Shown: positions 554 through 12,775, counted from the first letter of the stretch. The stretch is 12,775 nucleotides of DNA from an uncultured archaeon (GCA_964586355.1 CAZPGO010000020.1:1-12775), one strand, 5' to 3'. Made by a program: numbers and translations. The notes: generated from the letters alone by a model not told the origin.

Positions 554-1681
554 TTAATTTTCTAAAAAATAATTCAGATCTTTATCATTATGATCTTTAT
601 TATATACTTTTAAATATAATAGATCTACAATTCTATTTGAGTTTTCTCCGTTTGAACCAAATTCAATCTTTCTTAAAATATCTGGAATAATGGTGGCATT
701 TTTACCATATCCGGGAGATTCTGATGTCGGACCATAATTTCTACTATATATTCCATCTATTGTATCGTTATATTTTGAATTAGAAAAATTTTTAATAAAA
801 ATAATGTCTGTGTTTTTATCAACACCATGATCTCCAATATATTTACCAATTTTTAAATAATTTATCTCATTATAATTTAAATCATAAATGTGCCCTATTC
901 TCTGATCTATAATACTTTGTTTAAAATACAAATGATTTTGATCCTTATATAAATATAAATAATTAGTATCATCTCCAAATCTAAAAATTTCACCCACATA
1001 ATCAATAGTTAGATCATTAAAATATAATCCCAAAAATATTGTATAATTTTGATCTTCTGATAATTTAACAATCCCTTTTGTGTTTTTTGTAATTGTTAAT
1101 GCCATTTGATCATTAATTTTAGATTTAGATAATATTTTAGAATAAACTAAAGCATCATTTCTACAATTAGAATAATCTAATAAATAATAATAAGATGAAA
1201 ATCCAGTTGATGTGGTTCTTTCAACATTAAGATCTAATATTTTATTATCACACAAACCACTTTTATATAAATTAATTAATTCATTAAACCCACTATTATA
1301 ATCTGAAATATTTTTATTAACATCCACAGCAAAATTATAATAATTTAATTTACAATCATTATTTTCTTTTGTTACTTGATCTAAATTAGATTTGATTTTA
1401 TCACAATCAACTTTTGCAGATAATAATGAATTATTTAAATTTAAATATTCTTCGTTAGCGGTTTTTAAATTTTTTGACAATTCTAAATTTCTATTATTTA
1501 CTGAATTATTTTCTACAATAGAAATAAATAATAAAAAACTTAAAATTAATATCGCAATTGTTGAGCCAGCTAATCTTTTAGATTTAATATTAGCTCCACA
1601 TTTAGAACAATGCCTTGCATTAATTCTATTTTCGTGCCCACAACTGGAACATATTTTTTTATCTTTTAAACTTTTTGTCAC
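554..1681 (-). CDS. Zinc-ribbon single-pass membrane protein with a Cys-containing stalk and a beta-rich (possibly LamG/ConA-like) C-terminal domain; function unknown
   Basis: 375-aa ORF. GTG start at 1681 overlaps the upstream stop as GTGA, and a GGTGA SD at 1688..1692 sits 6 nt upstream. CxxCG-x9-CxxCG zinc ribbon at aa 11-28 (nt 1598..1651). Hydrophobic helix LAGSTIAILILSFLLFISIV at aa 37-56 (nt 1514..1573). A short coiled-coil-like stretch follows, then a Y/N/I-rich region predicted to be beta-rich. The C-terminal ...IVDLLYLKVYNKDHNDKDL resembles the end of LamG-type jelly rolls; this is a weak by-eye impression only. Confidence 0.75.
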   Translation of the reverse strand: MTKSLKDKKICSSCGHENRINARHCSKCGANIKSKRLAGSTIAILILSFLLFISIVENNSVNNRNLELSKNLKTANEEYLNLNNSLLSAKVDCDKIKSNLDQVTKENNDCKLNYYNFAVDVNKNISDYNSGFNELINLYKSGLCDNKILDLNVERTTSTGFSSYYYLLDYSNCRNDALVYSKILSKSKINDQMALTITKNTKGIVKLSEDQNYTIFLGLYFNDLTIDYVGEIFRFGDDTNYLYLYKDQNHLYFKQSIIDQRIGHIYDLNYNEINYLKIGKYIGDHGVDKNTDIIFIKNFSNSKYNDTIDGIYSRNYGPTSESPGYGKNATIIPDILRKIEFGSNGENSNRIVDLLYLKVYNKDHNDKDLNYFLEN

Positions 1682-3432
1682 AATTTTTCACCACAACAAT
1701 CACAATAATCTGATTTTGTTTTTAATAAAAGACCACACTTGTTACAATATTTTGAATTTTTTAAATTAGTTTTATCAAAATCACCATATTCTTCTGCTAA
1801 CTCTAATACTTGCTTAGACTTGCGTTCTGTATTCAATAAATATTTAATATTTTTTAATTTGTTAGACAATTCTGATATGTTTCCTTCTAAAGAAAGCATA
1901 ATTGATTTATCTTTTTCTAATTTGTTTTCTAAATCAGATATAATTTTTATTTGATCTTTATGTTTAGTTTCTAATAACTGAAATTTATCAAAAAGAATTT
2001 TCTTGCTTTTTACTAAATCAGACAATTCAGATTTTAAATCAATTAACTGCTTTTCTAATTTTTCTTTTTGATTAGATTGCTCAGCAAGTTCTTTTTTAGA
2101 ATCTGCAATTTCAGCAGCATATTTTGATACTTTGCCAGATAAATCACTTATTTGATTAGTTAAATCAATTATTTTATTTTCTTTATGTGATAATCTTAAA
2201 TTTTGTTCTTTTGAGATTTTAATATATTTTTCTAATTCTCGCTTTATTCTTTCTTGTTCCTGAATTTTTCTTTTTTCTATATTCACACTTGCATTAAAAT
2301 ATTCTGAAAATTTGTCTTCATCAAAATTTTTTTCAATTTTATCAAAACCAGGACGATCTTTTACTAAAGTAATTTTTAATTTTTGCGCTTTATTTGTAGA
2401 TGAAAATAAAGAATAACCTAAACCTGGGGATAACAAATTTCTAAAATTAGATTTATCTATTTGAAAAATTTTAGATAATGCAATAGCGTCTTTATCAGAA
2501 TTTGCTCTAAAACCAAGATATGCACCAGTATTTGCTCTTATAATTTCAGAAAAATCATCAGCACTTTGAGAAGCTAAAATTATACCTAGTCCGTATTTTC
2601 TAGATTCTCGAAGTATTTTATCAATAGGAGAATCTTCATATGCTAACCTGTGTGCTTCATCAATTACACAATATAATTCTAAATCAGATTTCCCTTTTAT
2701 ATATAAGTGATTAATTAATTTGCGTAATATTATTTCTGCAATTAAAGACTTTACCTCGTCTGTTGGATAATCGTTTAATTTTAATACGCTTGTTTTAGTT
2801 AAAATTTCTTTAAAAGGAATTGTTGTTTCGTTAGCATTAACAAATAAGGGTGTATCAAATATCACTCCAATTTTAGAAATTAATTTTTCAACATCAGGAT
2901 TAATTTTAGGCTCTTTTTCTCCTTTCGGGTCAAAAATCATTTTTTGAGAAAGCATAATTTTTTTAAATACAATAAATGGGAGTAATTGTACTGGTTTTTC
3001 ATTTTTTTGATGTAGATCTATAATTTCAGATTGAACATAAAATTCTTTTATAGATTCTCTAATAATACTAAATTGTATATCCCCTAAATGAAATATGTTC
3101 TTAAACATTTGACTAACTCTATAAGCAACATCTATTGGTCTTTCATTTGGTTGAATTTCAAGAGGATGAATTGTTGCACCGGTTTTTTCGAAATCAATTA
3201 TATTGTCTGACAATTGTTTGAAATCATCGTGAAAATCGATAACTAACGTATTAATTTTATTTTTACTTAATTCGAAAATAATTGATTTAATGGTTTCTGT
3301 TTTTCCAGAACCAGAACCCCCAATTAAAAGTAAATGTGGGTTGTGTTCATTCTGTGGAACCCAACAAATGTTAGAGTCTATTTCTGTATTTCCTGAATAT
3401 CCTTTACCTAAAAATATTTCTAATTTTTGCAA
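1678..3432 (-). CDS. HerA/FtsK-like (DUF87-type) P-loop ATPase with a ~180-aa C-terminal coiled coil and a terminal zinc ribbon
   Basis: 584-aa ORF. TTG start at 3432 with an AGGTGA SD at 3437..3442 (4-nt spacer). Walker A LLLIGGSGSGKT at aa 35-45 (GGSGSGKT = nt 3298..3321). Walker B LYCVIDEAHRL (VIDEAH = nt 2650..2667, aa 256-261). The block RESRKYGLGIILASQSADDF is typical of HerA/FtsK/VirB4-clade ATPases. Residues ~370-555 are heptad-like and K/E/L-rich. The C-terminus YCNKCG-x10-CDCCG forms a zinc ribbon (Cys codons span nt 1693..1746). Confidence 0.85.
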   Translation of the reverse strand: MQKLEIFLGKGYSGNTEIDSNICWVPQNEHNPHLLLIGGSGSGKTETIKSIIFELSKNKINTLVIDFHDDFKQLSDNIIDFEKTGATIHPLEIQPNERPIDVAYRVSQMFKNIFHLGDIQFSIIRESIKEFYVQSEIIDLHQKNEKPVQLLPFIVFKKIMLSQKMIFDPKGEKEPKINPDVEKLISKIGVIFDTPLFVNANETTIPFKEILTKTSVLKLNDYPTDEVKSLIAEIILRKLINHLYIKGKSDLELYCVIDEAHRLAYEDSPIDKILRESRKYGLGIILASQSADDFSEIIRANTGAYLGFRANSDKDAIALSKIFQIDKSNFRNLLSPGLGYSLFSSTNKAQKLKITLVKDRPGFDKIEKNFDEDKFSEYFNASVNIEKRKIQEQERIKRELEKYIKISKEQNLRLSHKENKIIDLTNQISDLSGKVSKYAAEIADSKKELAEQSNQKEKLEKQLIDLKSELSDLVKSKKILFDKFQLLETKHKDQIKIISDLENKLEKDKSIMLSLEGNISELSNKLKNIKYLLNTERKSKQVLELAEEYGDFDKTNLKNSKYCNKCGLLLKTKSDYCDCCGEKL

Positions 3433-3505
3433 GTTGTCACCTATGATAATCTATAAATATATTATAAATACTTAACTTATTTAAATATACTTTATTATTA
3501 TAATT
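3433..3505 (-). promoter_or_regulatory. Intergenic leader of the HerA-like gene: SD AGGTGA (3437..3442) and a TATA-like TTTAAATA box (minus strand, 3485->3478)
   Basis: Minus-strand reading: AATAAAGTATATTTAAATAAGTTAAGTATTTATAATATATTTATAGATTATCATAGGTGACAACTTG. The 23-nt box at 3467..3489 matches 514..536 at 21/23 positions. Confidence 0.35.
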
Positions 3506-4435
3506 TTAAATTAATTTATCTAATTTAAAATGTAATTTATAAGTATAAAATGATATGTTCTTTGTAACACTTAGTGCGCGTCTTATTCTTATATCGTCTT
3601 CAAATGCAACAATTATACCTTTTACTATTTGACCTTTTTCTAATAGTTCATCTTGTACATAGCCCATATATCTTTGTATTTGACCTACAACAATGTCGCT
3701 TGCTCTACCTTTTTTTAATTCTATTACTAATAGTTCTTTCTTATCTCTGCTTATTGCTAATATGTCAATATTACCTGTGTCACTGGGGTATTGTTGTCCA
3801 ACAATTTCCCCATCTTCTGTAAATATATCATATTCTCTTCCTAGTTCTGTTTTTGACCAATTTTTTATTAAAAATTCTTCTAAATGTTGCTCTAAAGCAA
3901 AAACACTAGCATCTTCGATTGTTTCATCTGTTGAAATTATTTTTGGAGGTTTACATCCAGACATTAATGATTCTATTTCAGATTCATATTTTGAAATATT
4001 ACTTACTGTTCCTATAGATCCTGTTGAATTTTTAAGTTCTTGACTCATTTCATCTCTATTAATTGTTTTTAAATACCATTTCACTGCTCTTCTATGAGGC
4101 AATTGTTGATCTGCTTTATATTCATAATTACTTACAACTTCTCCCACATAATAATTACCAATCCCATCTGGACATAAAACAACGTCTCCAATTTGTATTC
4201 CTTTAATTATTGTCCAAAGCATCCCACAAGCAAGTCCTGCTGATATTTTTATTTTATCTGGATTTTGTTCTAAAAATACAGGTATAAATTCTTTATTAAA
4301 ATCTCTCCAATTATCTACTAAATGATTAGATAAATCTTTAGATTTTATTAACTCTGCACCAATATAATTTCCTTTATATGATTCTTCAGCAAATACACTT
4401 TTTTTACCTAACATTATTCTATAATATTTTTTCAT
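3506..4435 (-). CDS. NucS/DUF91-like PD-(D/E)xK endonuclease domain (C-terminal) fused to an unassigned ~165-aa N-terminal domain
   Basis: 309-aa ORF with an ATG at 4435 and a GAGGGT SD-like site at 4446..4451. The C-terminal half reads LEQHLEEFLIKNWSKTELGREYDIFTEDGEIVGQQYPSDTGNIDILAISRDKKELLVIELKKGRASDIVVGQIQRYMGYV. This is the D...E-x-K core (IDIL / IELK) followed by the GQ(I/L)xRYMG helix characteristic of NucS C-terminal/DUF91 nucleases. The N-terminal half (YYRIMLGKKS...GLACGMLWTIIKGIQIGDVVLCPDG...LPHRRAVKW) recalls a conserved bacterial family that I cannot name with certainty. Confidence 0.75.
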   Translation of the reverse strand: MKKYYRIMLGKKSVFAEESYKGNYIGAELIKSKDLSNHLVDNWRDFNKEFIPVFLEQNPDKIKISAGLACGMLWTIIKGIQIGDVVLCPDGIGNYYVGEVVSNYEYKADQQLPHRRAVKWYLKTINRDEMSQELKNSTGSIGTVSNISKYESEIESLMSGCKPPKIISTDETIEDASVFALEQHLEEFLIKNWSKTELGREYDIFTEDGEIVGQQYPSDTGNIDILAISRDKKELLVIELKKGRASDIVVGQIQRYMGYVQDELLEKGQIVKGIIVAFEDDIRIRRALSVTKNISFYTYKLHFKLDKLI

Positions 4436-4471
4436 AATATTTTCAACCCTCTTATTTTTTAATTATTTAAT

Positions 4472-5215
4472 CTAATCAATTATTTTATGTAATATCTCTT
4501 TAAAGTCAATATATTTATTCTGATTATATAATTCTTCAATTTCTTTAAGACTAAACGGTTTAGTTTCATTATTAATATTAATTTTAGGCTTTAATTTATC
4601 ATTCTTAACTATATAATATGGACTAGCACTAAATTTAAATAAAGGAAATATATAGTTAAAAATTTCGTCATCTTCTGATTTCTTTGTTTCAAAAGTTTCT
4701 TTAAATTTTTTATTTACATTATTATAGCTTTCAAATATATAAAATATCTTTTTCTTGTCTATTTTAAATTCATTTGATAATTCTTCAACTCTATTAAAAT
4801 AATTTTTATTTTCAATTAGTTTACGATCCCAACCAATAGTGGTTTTTATTTCTATAATTGCTTGATTTTTACCATCTTTTTTAATCAAAATATCTGGTCG
4901 CAATTTATTTTGTTTTTCTTCTAATATAATCTCATATTCTTCTGGCAAAACATTTTTTAAATAAAAAGCGATTATATCTTGAAATATATCAGATAAAGAA
5001 GAATATATTTTTCTTTTAAACTCTATTTTATGTCTCCATTGTGCCAATCTTATTGAAAATAAATCTAAATATATTAATTTAGAAATGTCCTCTGTTTCAG
5101 AAATTTTATTTTTTTCTAGAAAAGCATCTAGAAACAAAGCATATTTGTCTCCAATTTTTGATTTAAACACAATCATTTCCCTTTTTATTTTCTTTTTTTG
5201 GTAATTCATTAACAT
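4472..5215 (-). CDS. Small PD-(D/E)xK (restriction-endonuclease-fold) protein; start uncertain (ATG at 5215, 5209 or 5176)
   Basis: 247-aa ORF. The core EEYEIILEE...LRPDILIKKDGKNQAIIEIKT (nt 4841..4900) gives a textbook E...PD...(E)xK arrangement (PD at aa 107-108, EIK about 14 aa later). It overlaps the upstream gene by 53 nt if the start is 5215, or by 14 nt if the start is 5176. No strong SD supports any of the three candidate starts. Confidence 0.6.
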   Translation of the reverse strand: MLMNYQKKKIKREMIVFKSKIGDKYALFLDAFLEKNKISETEDISKLIYLDLFSIRLAQWRHKIEFKRKIYSSLSDIFQDIIAFYLKNVLPEEYEIILEEKQNKLRPDILIKKDGKNQAIIEIKTTIGWDRKLIENKNYFNRVEELSNEFKIDKKKIFYIFESYNNVNKKFKETFETKKSEDDEIFNYIFPLFKFSASPYYIVKNDKLKPKININNETKPFSLKEIEELYNQNKYIDFKEILHKIID

Positions 5216-5891
5216 AATTTATTATTAAATTATCAATTAATTTTGGTTTAGGCATGATAATTTGTTTTCTTTCTAAATTTTTATAATATTTGTCTATATC
5301 GTTTTTTTTATTATTAAGTAATTCTTTGCCTAAATTTAATACTTTTAAAAAAGATCGACATTGCTTATCAGATCGCCCATAAAATGTTATTATTTTTGAA
5401 GTGTAAGCATTATCCATTGGAATAATTAAATCTGGTAATAAAAAATGAAGTGTTTTTGAAATTGAAACAAATTTAGATTCTGATTTTTTCTCTTGCTTAT
5501 TAACTGTTACAAAAGATAGATTTGTAAATAATTGATTAAACTTCTTACCAATCTCTGAGTTTTCTGATATTTCTTCTTTTATATTTTCTAATTTTTTAAT
5601 TTTCCAAAAATATTCTAAATTTGAGCTTTGACTTTGTAATTGTTTTTTAAAATCTTCAAATGAAACTAACCAACTTTGCCCCCTATTTAATCTCCAAGCA
5701 ATTAAACAAGCATAACATCTTTCTAGAAATTGATCATTATCTAGTTTATCTGATATTGACAGATCTTTTGATTCTAATATTTTTATATAAAAATATTCTG
5801 ATGCAGGAGAAAACATTTCTTTTTCATCTATTGCTAAATATTTAGAAATATCTTTATTACAAAAAATTTTGAATTCTTCTAAATTAGTCAT
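5163..5891 (-). CDS. Hypothetical, mostly alpha-helical protein (~243 aa); family not recognised, with a weak resemblance to HhH-GPD/OGG-fold proteins
   Basis: The ORF track gives 5163..5933, but that uses a TTG start lying inside the helicase gene. The first ATG (5891, MTNLEEFKIF...) lies 7 nt after the helicase stop (5899) and is preferred. There is no nucleotide-binding or nuclease motif. The segment SKTLHFLLPDLIIPMDNAYTSKI resembles the (K)xLHFxxP-x-hhPhxD stretch of OGG-fold/HhH-GPD-like proteins. This comparison is from memory and unverified. Confidence 0.6.
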   Translation of the reverse strand: MTNLEEFKIFCNKDISKYLAIDEKEMFSPASEYFYIKILESKDLSISDKLDNDQFLERCYACLIAWRLNRGQSWLVSFEDFKKQLQSQSSNLEYFWKIKKLENIKEEISENSEIGKKFNQLFTNLSFVTVNKQEKKSESKFVSISKTLHFLLPDLIIPMDNAYTSKIITFYGRSDKQCRSFLKVLNLGKELLNNKKNDIDKYYKNLERKQIIMPKPKLIDNLIINYVNELPKKENKKGNDCV

Positions 5892-5898
5892 ATTTTTC

Positions 5899-8598
5899 TC
5901 ACATCCCTTTTTCTTTCCTATATTGCTCAACAATAGATCTCGTGATCGGATTGTGATCTGTTGGCTTGATCTTTTCTAGATCTTTAATAAAAGTTTCTGG
6001 ATCGATCTTCCAGTCTACAATGATCTGAATGTGCTTGGTGATAGTGCCTATGGCACTTGATCTTGGCTTGGAGTCGTCAAGAGTCTTATCAATGGTACCA
6101 TCATTAATTGTTTTTTTTAAAGAGACATACCCAATAGCTACTTTAATCTTTTCTTTTGGAATAGAGTGAGTGTAAGAAAAAATATTCTTATAAAGCTCTA
6201 GTTGCTGACGATGCGCTCCTGCTGTTTTTGTATTCTTGTCTGTCTTCCAATCTACTATTAAGTATTCATCTGTTTCTGGGTTTCTAAAGATTGCGTCTAT
6301 CTTTCCAGTAAAAGTGAGATCGCTTGGAATTGTGGTTACAACATAAAGTGGAACCTCTCTAAAACCAAGCTCTGCTGCTATAACTTCTGAATATGTGGAT
6401 TTTATCTCAGAGATAAGGTATTTAGAGTTGTCTAAGATTTCGTGTGTTTCTTCATCAAGAATGGATAGATCTATTGGTTGATCTTTTAATAATTGCTCAA
6501 TAAGATTGTGAATGTCTGATCCTCTTGTTAGTGCTTTAGAAAATTGTGTTAACTTTAGTATTCTTTGTGTTAAATATTTCTCTGGATCTGTCTCTATTCC
6601 TGAATAGGAAAGATGATTAAGGTTTTCAAAATGTCTTGTAATATAGTCAATTATCCAAGAAGTATTATTTTCTAATTGTTTTTTTGCATTTTCATAATCT
6701 TTATTTACAAATAAGGAAAAAGCTTTTTTGTTAATATCTGAAAAATCAATAACACTTTCTTCTGGAACAATATTTTCTAAAAGAACTGAGTATTCATTTT
6801 TATAGTCTGGAGCTTTAGAAGTTAAAATATATAATTCTTCTTTAGCTCTAGTTACTGCAACAAAATCAATTCTGTTAGGTTCTTCTTCCAGTTCTTCTTT
6901 TGGATTTTTATTTAGACTATTTAAGATGGCAATAGTGATTGCATCTTGAAAGTTTTCATTATCATTGGTTTTACTTGGAACATAAATTACTTTTTCAAAT
7001 TGTCTACCTTTTGATTTATGAACTGTTGTTAAAATAACTTTATTTTCTGTTTTAATCTCTTCAGCTAATTGTTCAGCAGACAACAAAAAATTACAAAGAT
7101 TTTCTAGAGTTTTGTTTTCTAGAAGATCAAGGGCTTCAATTGTTGCTCTTTGCATGTTTATACAGGAGAGTGTGTAATCTCTTCCATAGGAAACAGCAAC
7201 AGGAAGTATGTTGTTTTTAAAAATGTTGTCTAAATCATTAATGTTACTAATAGATTCTCTTAATTCCTTATATTTTGGATATTTATCATAAACCTCTTCA
7301 AGAGTTAATTTATTATTTTCAGCAAGTTCAAAAGCATCTTGTAAGCAAATAGGAAAAAATGGTGTAAACATAGATGCTTTTATTAAATTTATATCTTTAC
7401 TTAATAGTCCTTTTAAAAAACTAATAATATTTTCCTTAGCTTCATCACTTGAAGTTAAATATGTTGAAGAAAAAGATATTCCATTTATCTCTAGCTCTTT
7501 AGCAAACTTATATAGTTGTGAATTTTTTCTTGCAATTATTGCAATTTCTTTATTTTCCTTCATTTGTTGTTCTTTAATAAAATAGGCAATAAAAGAGGGA
7601 ACATTATCCTTTACTGCAATAATTGATGGTTTTTCTCCTTTTTTAGCTGTTGCACTTTTTAGATCTTTAATTTCTTCAAGATCTGATTTATCTGCAGTCT
7701 TAGAAGAAAACAATTCTTTAGAATAATTTAAAATTTCATCTGTACTTCTAAAATTATCAGAAAGAACAAACTCTTTACCTGAATTAAACTTTAAAAAATT
7801 ACCTATAGATCCACCTTGAAAACCAAAAATTGCTTGTTTTTTATCTCCAACCACAACAAATTTTTCACAAACAGACAAAGCAATATCTGCTTCCATATCA
7901 TTAACGTCTTGTAGTTCATCTACTAATACCCATTTGAATTTTGGTTTATTTTTAATTTCTAAAAAATTTATTAAAATATCTGTATAATCTAATCCCTTTT
8001 TTTTCTTAAAATTTTCATATCTTTCAAAGATCTTAATAAAGTGTTCTAAATAAGACTCTAATTGCTCTTTATCATAGGTTTTAAATTCAGTAATATGTGT
8101 TTTAACATCATCTATATTTATTTTAGAAGGAATTATACCAAAACTTTTTAAATATCTAATTGCATTTTCAATTTTAGGAACAATTGTCTCTAATAAATAA
8201 TTATCTCCATAGTTTAGTACTTGGTTTTCAATCAAGTAAGAATAAATCTCATATCTTAAGAGATTAGAGGAAATAATTTCATTATCTTCTAGATTATCCA
8301 AAGAAAAAGCATGAAATGTTTGAATATTAATCTGAGATAAATCAATTTCTAGATTTTCAGTTTCTACAAGATTTAAAATTCTTTCTTGCATTTCCCCACA
8401 GGCTTTTTCAGTAAAGGTTAGACAAAGGATGTCTTTTGGAGAAATTCCTTGATATAATAAATAAACATATTTGTATGCAAGAAGTTTAGTTTTACCAGTT
8501 CCTGGGTTAGCTATAACAATTGTAGAATCATTATGTTTAATTGCATTCTTTTTTTCCTGATTAAGATCAGCCATTTCTATAAACTCAATTTCATTCAT
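5899..8598 (-). CDS. UvrD/Rep/PcrA-type SF1 helicase fused to a C-terminal RecB-family PD-(D/E)xK nuclease domain
   Basis: 899-aa ORF. Walker A ANPGTGKT (nt 8488..8511). Motif II VLVDELQD (nt 7906..7929). Further helicase motifs: VVGDKKQAIFGFQGG, DNFRS, TTVHKSKGRQFEKVIYV and VAVTRAKEELYIL. The C-terminal nuclease reads GSDIHNLIE...GKIDAIF (D768, nt 6295..6297)...YLIVDWKT (D783/K785, nt 6241..6255)...QQLELY. No Cys cluster is present, so it is not a Cas4/AddB-type Fe-S nuclease. The ATG at 8598 overlaps the Bro-N stop as ATGA; M9 (8574) is an alternative start. Confidence 0.9.
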   Translation of the reverse strand: MNEIEFIEMADLNQEKKNAIKHNDSTIVIANPGTGKTKLLAYKYVYLLYQGISPKDILCLTFTEKACGEMQERILNLVETENLEIDLSQINIQTFHAFSLDNLEDNEIISSNLLRYEIYSYLIENQVLNYGDNYLLETIVPKIENAIRYLKSFGIIPSKINIDDVKTHITEFKTYDKEQLESYLEHFIKIFERYENFKKKKGLDYTDILINFLEIKNKPKFKWVLVDELQDVNDMEADIALSVCEKFVVVGDKKQAIFGFQGGSIGNFLKFNSGKEFVLSDNFRSTDEILNYSKELFSSKTADKSDLEEIKDLKSATAKKGEKPSIIAVKDNVPSFIAYFIKEQQMKENKEIAIIARKNSQLYKFAKELEINGISFSSTYLTSSDEAKENIISFLKGLLSKDINLIKASMFTPFFPICLQDAFELAENNKLTLEEVYDKYPKYKELRESISNINDLDNIFKNNILPVAVSYGRDYTLSCINMQRATIEALDLLENKTLENLCNFLLSAEQLAEEIKTENKVILTTVHKSKGRQFEKVIYVPSKTNDNENFQDAITIAILNSLNKNPKEELEEEPNRIDFVAVTRAKEELYILTSKAPDYKNEYSVLLENIVPEESVIDFSDINKKAFSLFVNKDYENAKKQLENNTSWIIDYITRHFENLNHLSYSGIETDPEKYLTQRILKLTQFSKALTRGSDIHNLIEQLLKDQPIDLSILDEETHEILDNSKYLISEIKSTYSEVIAAELGFREVPLYVVTTIPSDLTFTGKIDAIFRNPETDEYLIVDWKTDKNTKTAGAHRQQLELYKNIFSYTHSIPKEKIKVAIGYVSLKKTINDGTIDKTLDDSKPRSSAIGTITKHIQIIVDWKIDPETFIKDLEKIKPTDHNPITRSIVEQYRKEKGM

Positions 8599-9467
8599 TT
8601 TTTTTCTTTTTTATAAATTATTTTCTTATTTTTGGGAGATTTTAATAATCTTTTTTTCTTTTCAGAAATTGTTAAATAATTATCTTTTGTAGATATTTTT
8701 CTGCCAAGGCCCTTTTCAATTTCTTTACGTGCATTGCCTGCAGCAGTTCCACCAATTTCAGCAACTTTTTTCAGTTTTTTAAATTCAGCTTCTTTTTCTT
8801 TAATAGTTAATTCCTTAGTTACACTTTCTCCAAGCATTGTAAATATTAATTCCATATCATCCATATGATCTATTAAGTTTTCTTTTTTTAAACCTTTAAA
8901 TTTTTTATATTCAGAGGGGGTCATATTAAACGTAGCTTTTGAGATTTCAGCAGTTAATATTGAAAAGTCTTTTTCTTGCTTAACTCCTTTTTTTTTCCAC
9001 TCGTCTGTTAATTCATCTCTAACTATTATTCCTCTTATTCTTTTTTCAATCCAAGCTTCAGAATACCCTTTTGATATATATAGCTCTCTCATTCTTGTTT
9101 GTGCAAGTTCTGGGTTTTCGATCTCTTGAACTCTTTGATAACCAACATTTGCTAACCATTGTTTAAATGGTTCTGCTTTTGGAGAAGGTATTGATTGAAT
9201 CAAACGAAACAACCATTTAACATTTAAACAATCAGTACCATAATATTTTCCATCTATTGCAGGCATTTTAAGTTGGTTACAAAATGTAACCAACTCACTA
9301 CCTTCTTCTTTTAATCTAAATTTTAAAACTTTCCAATAATTTCTGGAATCTTGACTATCTGTTAAAACACTAACAACATCAATAACAGAAAACCACCATT
9401 CGTTATTAAACCAAACTCTTCTTATTTTTTTATCTTGAAAAACAATTAGTCCTTTTTCTTTTTCCAT
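8595..9467 (-). CDS. Bro-N domain protein with a DinD-like C-terminal region
   Basis: The ORF track's 9497 start is a TTG inside the upstream gene. The ATG at 9467 (MEKEKGLIVF...) lies 8 nt after that gene's stop, with an AGTGA SD-like site ~9 nt upstream. N-terminal region: FQDKKIRRVWFNNEWWFSVIDVVSVLTDS...NYWKVLKFRLKEEG...LFRLIQSIPSPKAEPFKQWLA, the Bro-N signature. C-terminal region: ELTDEWKKKG...FKGLKKENLIDHMDDMELIF...GGTAAGNARKEIE, which resembles E. coli DinD-like proteins. Confidence 0.85.
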   Translation of the reverse strand: MEKEKGLIVFQDKKIRRVWFNNEWWFSVIDVVSVLTDSQDSRNYWKVLKFRLKEEGSELVTFCNQLKMPAIDGKYYGTDCLNVKWLFRLIQSIPSPKAEPFKQWLANVGYQRVQEIENPELAQTRMRELYISKGYSEAWIEKRIRGIIVRDELTDEWKKKGVKQEKDFSILTAEISKATFNMTPSEYKKFKGLKKENLIDHMDDMELIFTMLGESVTKELTIKEKEAEFKKLKKVAEIGGTAAGNARKEIEKGLGRKISTKDNYLTISEKKKRLLKSPKNKKIIYKKEKK

Positions 9468-9475
9468 ACTTTTTT

Positions 9476-10846
9476 TCACTTTTTTATAATTTCCCAATGC
9501 CCACCTTTATCAGGACCAACTCTTTTTATTTTGCCTTCTTTCTTTAATTTAGAAAGATTATATTTTATACCGTCTTCTGTTATATTACCTATTAATGCTG
9601 TTAATTTTTTTATAGAATATGCTGAATTTTCGGTAAGTAAATCTATTATTTTCTGGGTAGTTTTCTGGGTAGTTTTCTGGGTAGTTTCTATCGTGTTATT
9701 ATTTTGAGCGTCATCTATTGATTCACTAGGTGTTTTCTGTAATGGCTTATAAAAAATAACATCAAACCAATTTTTACTTATATTAAATTTTAATTTTAAA
9801 TTATATTCTTTCATAGCCTGCTTAATTCTAGTTATTCCTGATCCTACTCTTTCCCCTAAATCAAGTCTTAACATTAAATCAAAAAGAAGAGGATTTCTGG
9901 GCATGCTTTTCTTATCTATGTCCTTTTTAGATAATCCTGATACTAATCCTCCAGGATTTGTTATTTCAACTCTATCATAAAATATATCAACTTGTATTTG
10001 ACCGTTAGAAAAATAATCTCTATGAGCAATAGCATTAATTAATGCTTCTCTTATTGCTTTTTCTGGAATTTCTAATTTATTAATTCGATTTTTTCCTTCT
10101 ATAATATAATTTGTATTTAATCTTGAACAAATATAATCAAAAGCATTATCAAAATTAGAGTATAGATCTGCATCAAAGTCTTTTTTATCTAAAATATCTA
10201 ATTTATTTCTACCTTTGTATAATATACAAGTAATTCTGGCATTTATAAAAAACTTAGTTATTCTGTGGCAAAATATTAAAACTCCTGCATTTTTTAGATT
10301 ATTTCCATCTAATAACGATAAATTTCTTAATAAATCTAATTGTGATAAATTATTAGTAATATTTGCTTTTTTTAGAAAAAATTCATAAACTGATTTATTA
10401 AAATCATCGTTTAAATCAAAATTAAAATTTGGTTTTTCATCAAATAATACTTGTCTTTCATTTTTAAAAAAATCTCTTAATTCATTTCTATTCATTTTTT
10501 GAGAAGTTGCACCTATTCTTATATAGTATTGCCCAGAATGTGCATAAGGTTTATCTTCTCCTTCAGGAACAGTAATCACAGTTAGTTGATTATCTATTTG
10601 TTTTATAAAAACAATAATAGAAGGATCTATATGTCTAGCAATATCTTGAATTTTAGAAGCAATAGAATTATTTAGCTTAAATCCTTTAACTTCTCCATTA
10701 TCTTTAACACCTAAAATTATCTTTCCACCAGAAGAATTTGCAAAAGCGCAAATGGTTTTACCAATAGTATCAGTATATGACTCTTTAAACTCAAGAGTGT
10801 ACCCCTCTCCAACTTTAATTAAATCTAAAACTTCTGATCTATTCAT
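9476..10846 (-). CDS. AlbA_2 (Schlafen-like, 'divergent AAA') + HATPase_c_4 + C-terminal winged-helix protein; putative DNA-binding or sensor regulator
   Basis: 456-aa ORF with an ATG at 10846 and an AAGGAAA site upstream. N-terminal region: EGYTLEFKES...ICAFANSSGGKIILGVKDNGEVKG (AlbA_2 signature). Middle: REALINAIAHRDY...ITNPGG (HATPase_c_4-like). C-terminal region: IIDLLTENSAYSIKKLTALIGNITEDGIKYNLSKLKKEGKIKRVGPDKGGHWEI (wHTH). The linker contains TTQKTTQKTTQK, encoded by a 12-bp tandem repeat. Confidence 0.85.
   Translation of the reverse strand: MNRSEVLDLIKVGEGYTLEFKESYTDTIGKTICAFANSSGGKIILGVKDNGEVKGFKLNNSIASKIQDIARHIDPSIIVFIKQIDNQLTVITVPEGEDKPYAHSGQYYIRIGATSQKMNRNELRDFFKNERQVLFDEKPNFNFDLNDDFNKSVYEFFLKKANITNNLSQLDLLRNLSLLDGNNLKNAGVLIFCHRITKFFINARITCILYKGRNKLDILDKKDFDADLYSNFDNAFDYICSRLNTNYIIEGKNRINKLEIPEKAIREALINAIAHRDYFSNGQIQVDIFYDRVEITNPGGLVSGLSKKDIDKKSMPRNPLLFDLMLRLDLGERVGSGITRIKQAMKEYNLKLKFNISKNWFDVIFYKPLQKTPSESIDDAQNNNTIETTQKTTQKTTQKIIDLLTENSAYSIKKLTALIGNITEDGIKYNLSKLKKEGKIKRVGPDKGGHWEIIKK
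9649..9688. repeat. Perfect 12-bp tandem repeat ttttctgggtag, 3 full copies plus 4 nt, in frame within the AlbA_2-family gene
   Basis: Direct reading: 9649..9660, 9661..9672 and 9673..9684 are identical, and 9685..9688 (tttc) starts a fourth copy. It encodes (T)TQK x3 in the linker before the wHTH domain. Confidence 0.95.
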
Positions 10847-12267: not shown

Positions 12268-12775
12268 ATGAAAAAAATATTGATCAGCAACGCTTATGAC
12301 TTTACTCCAATGGTTGGAGCAATTACAAAGATCGGACCAGATGTTGTTTATGCAGTTATGAATAATACTCCTGAAACACATCAAAAAGAAGCATTAAAGA
12401 AACTTAAAAACACATTTAAACATATAGAGTTCAAAGAGATCAAAACAGAGATCTATAAAGTTTATGAAGTAGCAAAAGAAATAGTTAAAGCAATAGATCA
12501 AATATATGTTCAAGACACAGAGATCTATTTAGATATAACCTCTGGAAGAAAAACAAAATCTATTGGAATACTTCTTAGTGGGTATCAAAGAGCAGATAAG
12601 ATTAAAGATATTCTTTATTTTACACAAGAAATTAATCAAATGGTAACTTTACCAAAACTTTCTTTTGAAATTAGTAAAAAATCAGCAGATCTTCTAACAA
12701 TTGTTTCAAAAAAACCAATAACTTTGCCAGATCTTGCAAATAATAAAAAACTAAATTCAATGGGAAGAACTTCTG
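12268..12775 (+). CDS. CARF-like Rossmann domain followed by the start of a wHTH (Csa3-like regulator architecture); partial, continuing past the right edge
   Basis: Absent from the ORF track. Hand translation from the ATG at 12268 stays open to the window end: MKKILISNAYDFTPMVGAITKIGPDVVYAVMNNTPETHQKEALKKLKNTFKHIEFKEIKTEIYKVYEVAKEIVKAIDQIYVQDTEIYLDITSGRKTKSIGILLSGYQRADKIKDILYFTQEINQMVTLPKLSFEISKKSADLLTIVSKKPITLPDLANNKKLNSMGRTS... The first strand plus Gly-rich loop is followed by LDITSGRK at about aa 97-104, which matches the position and form of the CARF D-x-T/S-x-G-x-R/K motif. The segment after it (ADLLTIVSKKPITLPDLA) looks like the beginning of a wHTH, as in Csa3. Confidence 0.5.
   Translation, partial: MKKILISNAYDFTPMVGAITKIGPDVVYAVMNNTPETHQKEALKKLKNTFKHIEFKEIKTEIYKVYEVAKEIVKAIDQIYVQDTEIYLDITSGRKTKSIGILLSGYQRADKIKDILYFTQEINQMVTLPKLSFEISKKSADLLTIVSKKPITLPDLANNKKLNSMGRTS

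Follow-up and report, generated by a model that had tools for sequence, protein, structure and literature searches.

A previously undescribed two-gene module of DPANN archaea links a DndH-like HerA/FtsK ATPase with a zinc-ribbon membrane protein in restriction-rich neighbourhoods

A 12,775-nucleotide stretch of DNA from an uncultured archaeon (GCA_964586355.1 CAZPGO010000020.1:1-12775; the window) carries, at positions 554..3432, a gene for a HerA/FtsK-like ATPase that overlaps a gene for a membrane protein, which raises the question of whether the two proteins form one unit and what such a unit would do. From the sequence alone, the pair had been read as an undescribed and possibly membrane-tethered ATPase machine. 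Based on a comparison of related loci, together with profile searches and structure models, we conclude that the pair is a real two-gene module that was previously undescribed, and that it is a variant of the HerA/FtsK-based machinery of defence islands. The best explanation as a whole, to which we give a probability of roughly 0.5, is that the two genes act in DPANN archaea as one operon-level module, a motor and its membrane anchor, with a probable role in defence. The host itself is assigned to the DPANN archaea because those homologues that carry a name are from Woesearchaeota and Aenigmarchaeota; exact copies of the ATPase and partner occur in metagenome assemblies only.

The window is ~25% GC, and all of its genes but one lie on the minus strand, including both genes of the pair. 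The open reading frame (ORF) of the ATPase (1678..3432) begins with TTG and encodes 584 residues, and that of the partner (554..1681) begins with GTG and encodes 375. The stop codon of the former and the start codon of the latter overlap as GTGA (1678..1681), as in translational coupling, and a GGTGA Shine-Dalgarno-like site for the partner is embedded in the final ATPase codons (1688..1692), 6 nt before the GTG. Both signals had been noted in the sequence-only reading and were confirmed by the ORF coordinates. A second GGTGA, read from the sequence, is located 4 nt before the ATPase TTG (3437..3441, minus strand). Within the 73-nt AT-rich spacer above it, TTTAAATA (3478..3485, minus strand) fits an archaeal TATA box, but such boxes were read by eye and are weak evidence, since the DNA is so poor in GC. 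To place the pair among its relatives, we gathered 50 loci from GTDB species genomes, 80 from JGI metagenomes and 14 by exact-protein look-up (denoted by L numbers), in which ORFs were called and ATPase tails were classified. The 4-nt overlap is also present in L002, L003, L070, L139 and L141, while the overlap is 1 nt in L143 and ~19-20 nt in L111 and L103. Considering that the 4-nt overlap and the architecture recur in pairs whose ATPases are 36-79% identical, the pairing is not a product of chance.

The ATPase consists of a P-loop core, a long helical tail and a C-terminal zinc ribbon. Its AlphaFold2 (AF2) model, built on a 43-sequence alignment, has a mean predicted local distance difference test score (pLDDT) of 84 and presents a compact P-loop core, a single helix and a terminal ribbon. 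The core (residues 1-365; 2338..3432) is modeled with pLDDT >90 throughout. As originally read, Walker A (GGSGSGKT, residues 38-45, with the lysine at position 44; 3298..3321) and Walker B (YCVIDEAH, residues 254-261; 2650..2673) are intact, and both the RESRKYG motif (2590..2610) and sensor Q289 within LASQS (2563..2577) are invariant in 43 homologues. The proposed coiled coil of ~180 residues corresponds to one AF2 helix (residues 372-548; 1789..2319), in which pLDDT falls below 60 past about residue 480 and for which weak matches to SMC, DndD and JetC coiled coils were found. The ribbon that follows, recognized in the sequence as CNKCG-x10-CDCCG (Cx2C-x10-Cx2CG, residues 563-581; 1690..1746), completes the tail.

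To determine which HerA/FtsK-type ATPase this core resembles most, we compared it with profiles and structures. Pfam assigned it to DUF87 (E 1.7e-9), and PADLOC matched it to DndH (4.9e-31) and mad8 (2.3e-22). When the family profile was searched against all PDB sequences, the DndH/DptH C-domain structure 7es4 ranked at the top (E 1.3e-26), with HerA (4e-16), FtsK (2e-5) and VirB4 (9e-5) at lower ranks. Foldseek likewise returned 7es4 as the best match to the core (E 2.8e-19, TMt score 0.76, root-mean-square deviation 3.7), compared with TMt 0.69 for VirB4 and 0.49 for HerA. The defence-HerA models of PADLOC aligned only partially (HerA 5e-10, residues 216-322), the NCBIfam HerA_antiphage model gave 21 bits against a cut-off of 800, and only two short strands precede the P-loop in the ATPase model. 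As such, the label "HerA/FtsK-like" is correct at the superfamily level, and the core, which resembles the DndH/DptH C-domain most, is devoid of the N-terminal barrel of HerA. By homology with HerA/FtsK and DndFGH, the ATPase is probably a ring-forming translocase on double-stranded DNA; translocase activity has been reported for the DndFGH complex (PMC11662687; PMC10853773).

The partner gene (554..1681, minus strand) encodes a zinc ribbon, one transmembrane (TM) helix, a helical stalk and a beta-sandwich, in agreement with what had been read from its sequence. The N-terminal ribbon (Cx2C-x10-Cx2CG, residues 11-29; 1595..1651) has four cysteines that are invariant in four close homologues, and a hydropathy scan placed the TM helix at residues 38-56 (1514..1570). 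Because 10 Lys/Arg residues, read from the sequence, precede the TM helix, the ribbon would be cytoplasmic and the beta domain outside the cell. In the AF2 model, which was built from four sequences and is of moderate confidence (pLDDT 63), a helix of residues 26-141 contains the TM segment and extends as a stalk to about residue 141. It is followed by the strands of the beta-sandwich (residues 148-361; 599..1240; pLDDT 60-79), and the conserved C144 and C173 sit at or within its beginning. The PilC lectin module 7oa8 and BoNT Hc, both jelly rolls of the lectin type, were the best Foldseek matches of the ectodomain (E ~2e-6, TM-score 0.3-0.4), so that a lectin-like jelly-roll fold is likely, though not certain, on the basis of this model. 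Apart from zinc-ribbon matches in Pfam, all of them below threshold, the partner matched no PADLOC, NCBIfam or PHROG family. A word-indexed search found only three close relatives of the partner, and more distant partners were located through synteny.

The ectodomains of these partners differ in kind. Jelly rolls are present in the window and L002, GLUG repeats in L139 (592 residues), a Cys-rich region in L070 and a different beta-rich domain in L017, while the partners of L111, L103 and L032 have essentially no ectodomain. Since the conserved portion is the ribbon with the TM segment, and the ectodomain is variable or absent, the partner appears to be an anchor rather than a sensor. The "envelope sensor" that had been suggested for it is thus not a conserved role and could at most be lineage-specific, and the partner is best read as the membrane tether of the ATPase.

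Whether the two genes belong together was examined across the ATPase family, which is very small: an exhaustive HMMER search of 1.84 billion representative proteins yielded 70 clusters at E <= 1e-30, and a pattern scan found the family in ~33 of 185,579 GTDB species. In the next relatives beyond it, the ATPase domain is C-terminal within proteins of 600-900 or 1,500-1,850 residues, the latter being the size of DndH. Four tail types were distinguished within the family. Type A has the coiled coil and C-terminal ribbon seen in the window; type B (~455 residues; marine Woesearchaeota) has the coiled coil only; type C (Aenigmarchaeota) has a charged linker and 1-4 TM helices fused at the ATPase C-terminus; and type D (~354 residues) is the core only. 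A protein with a zinc ribbon and TM segment adjoins the ATPase in 10 of 10 evaluable type-A loci (the window, L059/L141, L002, L070, L143, L139, L111, L103, L017 and L032) versus 0 of 63 loci of types B, C and D (Fisher 1.6e-12), although the count is inflated by relatedness of the loci. The pair is therefore syntenic in other genomes wherever the ATPase bears the ribbon tail. About six lineages that are less than 70% identical to one another can be told apart among the type-A ATPases, and they are interleaved with B and C forms on a neighbour-joining tree. The arrangement varies in detail: the L103 partner begins at ATG 2045, and in L032 the partner gene is convergent with the ATPase gene and has its ribbon at the protein C-terminus. 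In L017 (7276..10342) the module is apparently decaying. The ATPase ORF there ends at 330 residues while tblastn similarity runs on to query residue 583, an HsdM-like N-terminal fragment overlaps ahead of the broken ATPase, and the partner behind it is intact.

The ribbons of the two proteins vary together. The Cx2C-x10-Cx2C spacing is identical on both proteins in all nine tabulated ribbon pairs. In L003/L065, a ribbon-less ATPase is followed by a 4-nt-overlapping, multi-TM partner that is likewise ribbon-less and that has LIWHPxF and HGDPxxxQGPH motifs in common with the ribbon-bearing partner of L143. Considering that both members of the L003/L065 pair are without ribbons and that its partner is akin to that of L143, gain and loss of the ribbon appear to be coordinated between the two genes, and the two ribbons probably act together. 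The TM helices fused to the Aenigmarchaeota ATPases indicate, as a Rosetta-stone argument, that the motor works at the membrane, and lend independent support to the idea of a membrane-tethered ATPase. In view of this evidence, we consider a real module with a membrane tether highly probable.

The surroundings of the pair point to restriction. Nine of the ten type-A loci have restriction nucleases or a UvrD-PD-(D/E)xK protein next to the pair, and the tenth (L103, 2.4 kb) is too short to judge; the systems concerned are of types I, IIG and III, McrBC and GmrSD. In the window, as had been read before, the pair is followed by the N-terminal portion of a Type III Mod (MTase_III, 5.9e-71). McrC lies upstream of the pair in L141; in L002, McrBC is upstream and an MmeI-type enzyme lies 14 nt downstream. 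The ATPase of L070 comes after HsdM, HsdS and HsdR, which were recognized by eye in their N-terminal sequences, and its start overlaps the HsdR stop; in L143 an HsdR-like C-terminal fragment (by eye) overlaps the ATPase start. By eye, an HsdM-like fragment was also found upstream of the disrupted ATPase gene of L017, and a type I system ~1.4 kb from the pair in L032. A long coiled-coil form, L148, has an HsdM-like ORF behind the ATPase.

A second recurrent neighbour is a UvrD-PD-(D/E)xK helicase-nuclease (899 residues; 5899..8598, minus strand; Pfam), which may be an associated component. L078/L139 and L111 carry orthologues of the window protein (46% and 42% identity) shortly upstream of the pair, and L002 likewise encodes a UvrD-PD-(D/E)xK protein. 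In L139 (helicase-nuclease region 1885..5892), the helicase-nuclease, two small ORFs, the ATPase and the partner follow one another at spacings of -4, -11, +1 and -4 nt, and GmrSD comes next. In L111 (region 4253..6913), an OB-HD nuclease, the helicase-nuclease, the ATPase and the partner are arranged in series, with RadA divergent. No orthologue was found near type B, C or D forms, and a larger system that includes the helicase-nuclease is possible. A fixed five-gene system could not be defined, as the window proteins p256 and p247 and the 225- and 224-residue proteins of L139 have no mutual similarity; these four matched no Pfam, PADLOC or PHROG family where scanned.

The other tail types have surroundings of their own. 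In type-D loci, a conserved soluble protein of ~320-360 residues, denoted U, precedes the ATPase in 9 of 9 loci checked (L099-L109; e.g. L104 5921..8008 and L106 2651..4712), among PglX-like methylase, type I methylase, NERD-helicase and GmrSD genes. Protein U has no Pfam, PADLOC or PHROG match and is unlike the N-terminal regions of the fused relatives of 600-900 residues; together with the type-D ATPase it is a candidate for a second two-gene module on the same motor. Type-B genes are surrounded by RhuM, ORF6N, integrase and nucleotidyltransferase genes mixed with housekeeping genes.

No known system was found to cover the pair, as the sequence-only reading had anticipated: PADLOC 2.0 (database of 2023) has no model that covers the partner or the pair, and full-text literature searches did not turn up any HerA/FtsK module that is tethered through zinc ribbons, though a very recent naming is possible. 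The closest relative is the DndFGH/DptFGH system, which supplies the best profile and fold match of the core and with which the ATPase has in common Walker A and B, an arginine upstream of strand 4 and the sensor Q; both also occur in restriction contexts (PMC10853773). However, DndH has ~1,700 residues with helicase-like, target-recognition, inactive methylase and restriction endonuclease domains and is partnered by DndF and DndG, whereas the 584-residue ATPase is free-standing, its domain is N-terminal from residue 1, such extra domains were not found in it, and it has instead a coiled coil, a zinc ribbon and a membrane partner. DptF and DptG have no match among the window proteins; a true DptFGH locus for comparison is L146.

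DndH-like translocases also occur in the HerA/FtsK capture systems, in which they have been recruited to defence neighbourhoods with nucleases and fast-evolving accessory domains (PMC10853773; BREX-related, PMC12839542). There, the proposed logic is to localise on invader DNA and pump it toward a nuclease, and the concept holds that defence systems recruit such motors repeatedly, sometimes from cellular segregation machinery (PMC10853773, PMC12839542). The described versions are cytoplasmic and pair with Orc/Cdc6, a D5 helicase, a winged helix-turn-helix (wHTH) protein, a restriction endonuclease or PglZ (PMC10853773, PMC12839542), whereas a membrane anchor, a coiled-coil tail and paired zinc ribbons are undescribed there. 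No Orc/Cdc6, D5-type helicase or wHTH component was found in the window, and Cdc6 occurs solely near the TM-fused relatives.

Other two-gene or methylase-linked systems resemble the pair in part. SIR2-HerA and DUF4297-HerA (Nezha) have the same ATPase superfamily, two-gene layout and defence-island location, but their HerA has an N-terminal HAS barrel and is paired with a soluble enzymatic effector; no SIR2 or DUF4297 gene was found in the window with Pfam, PADLOC or NCBIfam. For MADS, the mad8 profile spans the ATPase core (residues 4-349 against profile positions 2-294 of 314), and a DNA methylase adjoins the pair (bioRxiv 10.1101/2023.03.30.534895). However, that methylase is a Type III Mod and not mad2, mad8 lacks a coiled-coil/ribbon tail and a membrane partner, and mad1-mad7 have no match in nine window proteins. 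FtsK/SpoIIIE and Ced are DNA motors of the HerA/FtsK superfamily that are associated with the membrane, as is proposed for the present motor. The TM-fused relatives correspond in concept to an FtsK in reverse order: their motor is at the N-terminus and their anchor at the C-terminus. Unlike FtsK, the ATPase has no alpha or gamma domain and scores below the family thresholds (FtsK Pfam 20.4 bits against a cut-off of 24). Ced includes a polytopic CedA channel with the small proteins CedA1 and CedA2, whereas the window encodes no polytopic protein and the partner spans the membrane with one TM helix. In the present pair, motor and anchor are encoded as two proteins that are apparently joined via zinc ribbons.

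Restriction systems enclose or adjoin the module in nearly every case, and for this reason a place in the defence repertoire is most likely. A defence role, which had been called plausible for the pair, is supported by the restriction context that recurs at type-A loci, and from this context we consider it somewhat favoured. In the model that we propose, a motor with a helix of ~180 residues tipped by a C4 zinc ribbon would be anchored by a partner that combines a cytoplasmic ribbon of this type with at least one TM helix and an ectodomain particular to each lineage. The two ribbons would bind each other or a common ligand and thereby hold the motor, presumably a hexamer, at the inner face of the membrane. 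Such a membrane-sited "HerA/FtsK capture" device would engage foreign DNA at or near its entry point and expose it to the neighbouring nucleases. This specific mechanism is tentative. In a broader and slightly more doubtful form, a stalk-hung ring translocase, ribbon-docked to a surface-exposed anchor, would seize DNA as it crosses the membrane and feed it to nucleases or to salvage and recombination.

Several observations weigh against a ribbon-docked defence module. The L003/L065 pair is coupled even though it is ribbon-less, so ribbons cannot be the sole contact between the two proteins, and this pair lies among housekeeping genes (MutS, topoisomerase, radical-SAM). In L147, the downstream ORF opens with a TM or signal segment, and no ribbon is seen in the 35 residues available. 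A hidden Markov model of the fused TM tails, searched against all 7,283 ORFs of the collected loci, found as its best real non-self match the L003/L065 partner at E 0.015, so that homology between the fused type-C tail and the separate partner is suggestive and not established. The partner model, with its pLDDT of 63, is of moderate confidence only, none of the nucleases accompanies the pair in every locus, and the sequences are all derived from metagenomes of uncultured DPANN archaea. With RadA and the OB-HD nuclease, the L111 locus would suit DNA repair or uptake no less than defence. The type-C loci (L018-L031, L080-L098) lie among housekeeping genes; ScpB is located 26 nt downstream of the type-C ATPase in L023, L025, L031 and L116, and Cdc6/Orc-like genes occur near type C in L028, L030 and L039 (Pfam-confirmed in L030). 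That these relatives adjoin ScpB and Cdc6/Orc points to a role in cellular DNA segregation for at least part of the family. The type-C form may be an inverted-FtsK-like cellular DNA motor, and in its housekeeping context it may represent the cellular source of the defence motor.

These type-C neighbourhoods, in which the TM-fused Aenigmarchaeota members lie among exosome, NAC and tRNA-synthetase genes with ScpB and Cdc6/Orc-like genes, together with the housekeeping surroundings of L003/L065, are what would be expected if the pair were a housekeeping membrane-anchored DNA translocase, that is, a DPANN analogue of FtsK/SpoIIIE that clears or segregates chromosomes at division and is found in an island incidentally. 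The sporadic distribution of the family speaks against this explanation, as do the restriction genes that adjoin ribbon-tailed and bare-core members wherever the locus is long enough, the DndH-type defence proteins that are the nearest relatives outside the family, and the sub-threshold FtsK score without a gamma domain, and we consider it unlikely. We judge it just as unlikely that the pair is a machine for DNA import or exchange, in which the motor would draw extracellular or host DNA across the envelope in the manner proposed for CedB or a type IV secretion system (T4SS) coupling protein, for recombination or for nucleotide salvage in a nucleotide-auxotrophic episymbiont, and in which the ectodomain would attach to the host surface or the substrate. 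The adhesin-like ectodomains (lectin fold, GLUG repeats) would suit such a machine, as would the UvrD-PD-(D/E)xK protein beside the pair in 4 loci, RadA and the OB-HD nuclease in L111, the Foldseek match to VirB4 (TMt 0.69) and a weak similarity to CedD, CedB and VirB4. However, the scores against the CedB, CedD, VirB4 and TraD models (15-51 bits, cut-offs 520-700) are 10-fold below the family cut-offs: in NCBIfam, the ATPase reaches ~50-51 bits against 700 for CedB and 600 for CedD and 43.5 bits against 590 for VirB4_plasma, and TrwB_AAD_bind aligns to residues 26-71 only. DndH remains the best sequence and fold match, several partners are without an ectodomain, one TM helix alone cannot make a DNA pore, and no CedA/ComEC-type polytopic channel gene is nearby. 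Scans of the window and the type-A loci also found no relaxase, T4SS or pilin gene near the pair; a place in a transfer locus, one of three findings that the sequence-only reading had named as counting against it, is not borne out.

The variable, fast-evolving ectodomains would also be expected of an arms-race sensor. In an abortive-infection-type reading, the ectodomain would detect an attached virus or a damaged envelope and signal by way of the TM helix and ribbons, with the long coiled coil as a possible transmitter; oligomerisation of the ATPase would then deplete ATP or activate a neighbouring nuclease. The defence-island context agrees with this, but the partners of L111, L103 and L032 and the TM-fused relatives essentially lack an ectodomain, and Pfam, PADLOC and NCBIfam scans found no toxic effector domain in either protein, which makes this reading less probable still. 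Least probable of all is a gene pair of an integrated mobile element that serves genome packaging, plasmid partition or conjugation. In its favour, PHROG gave weak matches to terminase and FtsK-like families, and integrase, ORF6N, RhuM and Bro-N genes lie near type-B members, with Bro-N also in the window. However, 2.9 million viral contigs gave one distant match (28%), plasmid matches in tblastn were at most 30% identical and included true DptH, and neither the window nor the type-A loci contain capsid, replication or relaxase genes. As the viral-contig scan and the plasmid tblastn yielded nothing close, a mobile-element origin was rejected.

Upstream of the pair in the window lies a gene (3506..4435, minus strand) for a 309-residue protein with a NucS_C-like PD-(D/E)xK domain and DUF8426. 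The NucS-like neighbour of the sequence-only reading thus stands as a PD-(D/E)xK domain, while the protein itself is PDC-S02 (PADLOC, E 4e-159), a single-gene candidate. It was considered as a third component of the module and rejected: it is not kept beside the pair in other loci, and DUF8426 occurs elsewhere on a McrB-like AAA protein (L002 1624..3228). This suggests that DUF8426 is a DNA-reader domain common to modification-dependent restriction enzymes. The region 4472..8598 holds the UvrD-nuclease and then two small overlapping ORFs without an assigned family, one of which has a weak Cas4/PD-(D/E)xK-like match. At 6001..6500, inside the UvrD-like gene, GC content rises up to 0.35 compared with ~0.25 elsewhere and GC skew is reversed.

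Next comes a gene for a Bro-N protein (8595..9497, minus strand; PADLOC PDC-S13, E 3e-116), homologues of which are located 95 nt downstream of type-B ATPases in L013, L014, L075 and L073; an ORF6N protein is encoded upstream of the ATPase in L005-L008. A gene for a protein with Schlafen/AlbA_2 and HATPase_c_4 domains (9476..10846, minus strand) overlaps the Bro-N gene. Homologues of the Schlafen/AlbA_2 protein are again found near the pair in L002 (44% identity) and L009 (32%), so that parts of the island are conserved between distant DPANN genomes. The sole plus-strand gene of the window (12268..12775), which runs off its end, belongs to HFX_2341_N/Csa3_N (CARF-like Rossmann; E 8.5e-10) and has a DITSGRKT motif. 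A member of this family with a wHTH domain is encoded directly upstream of a ribbon-tailed ATPase homologue in L147, and the window protein may regulate the island or the module itself.

HerA/FtsK motors are increasingly found in anti-invader systems, and the versions described to date are all cytoplasmic. The impact of the present module is limited by its very small family of 70 clusters and by its restriction to uncultured lineages. If the proposed reading is true, restriction-linked handling of DNA would take place at the entry point, through a motor that a distinct, rapidly evolving surface protein tethers to the membrane; such a membrane-sited use of HerA/FtsK has not been described before, and the zinc ribbons would serve as a modular dock between motor and anchor. 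The covariation of the ribbons and the TM-fused relatives turn this dock into a testable hypothesis of protein-protein docking. Taken all together, the module would propose a role for one class of the abundant, unannotated archaeal proteins that combine a zinc ribbon with a TM segment, and would add to the known defence repertoire of DPANN archaea.

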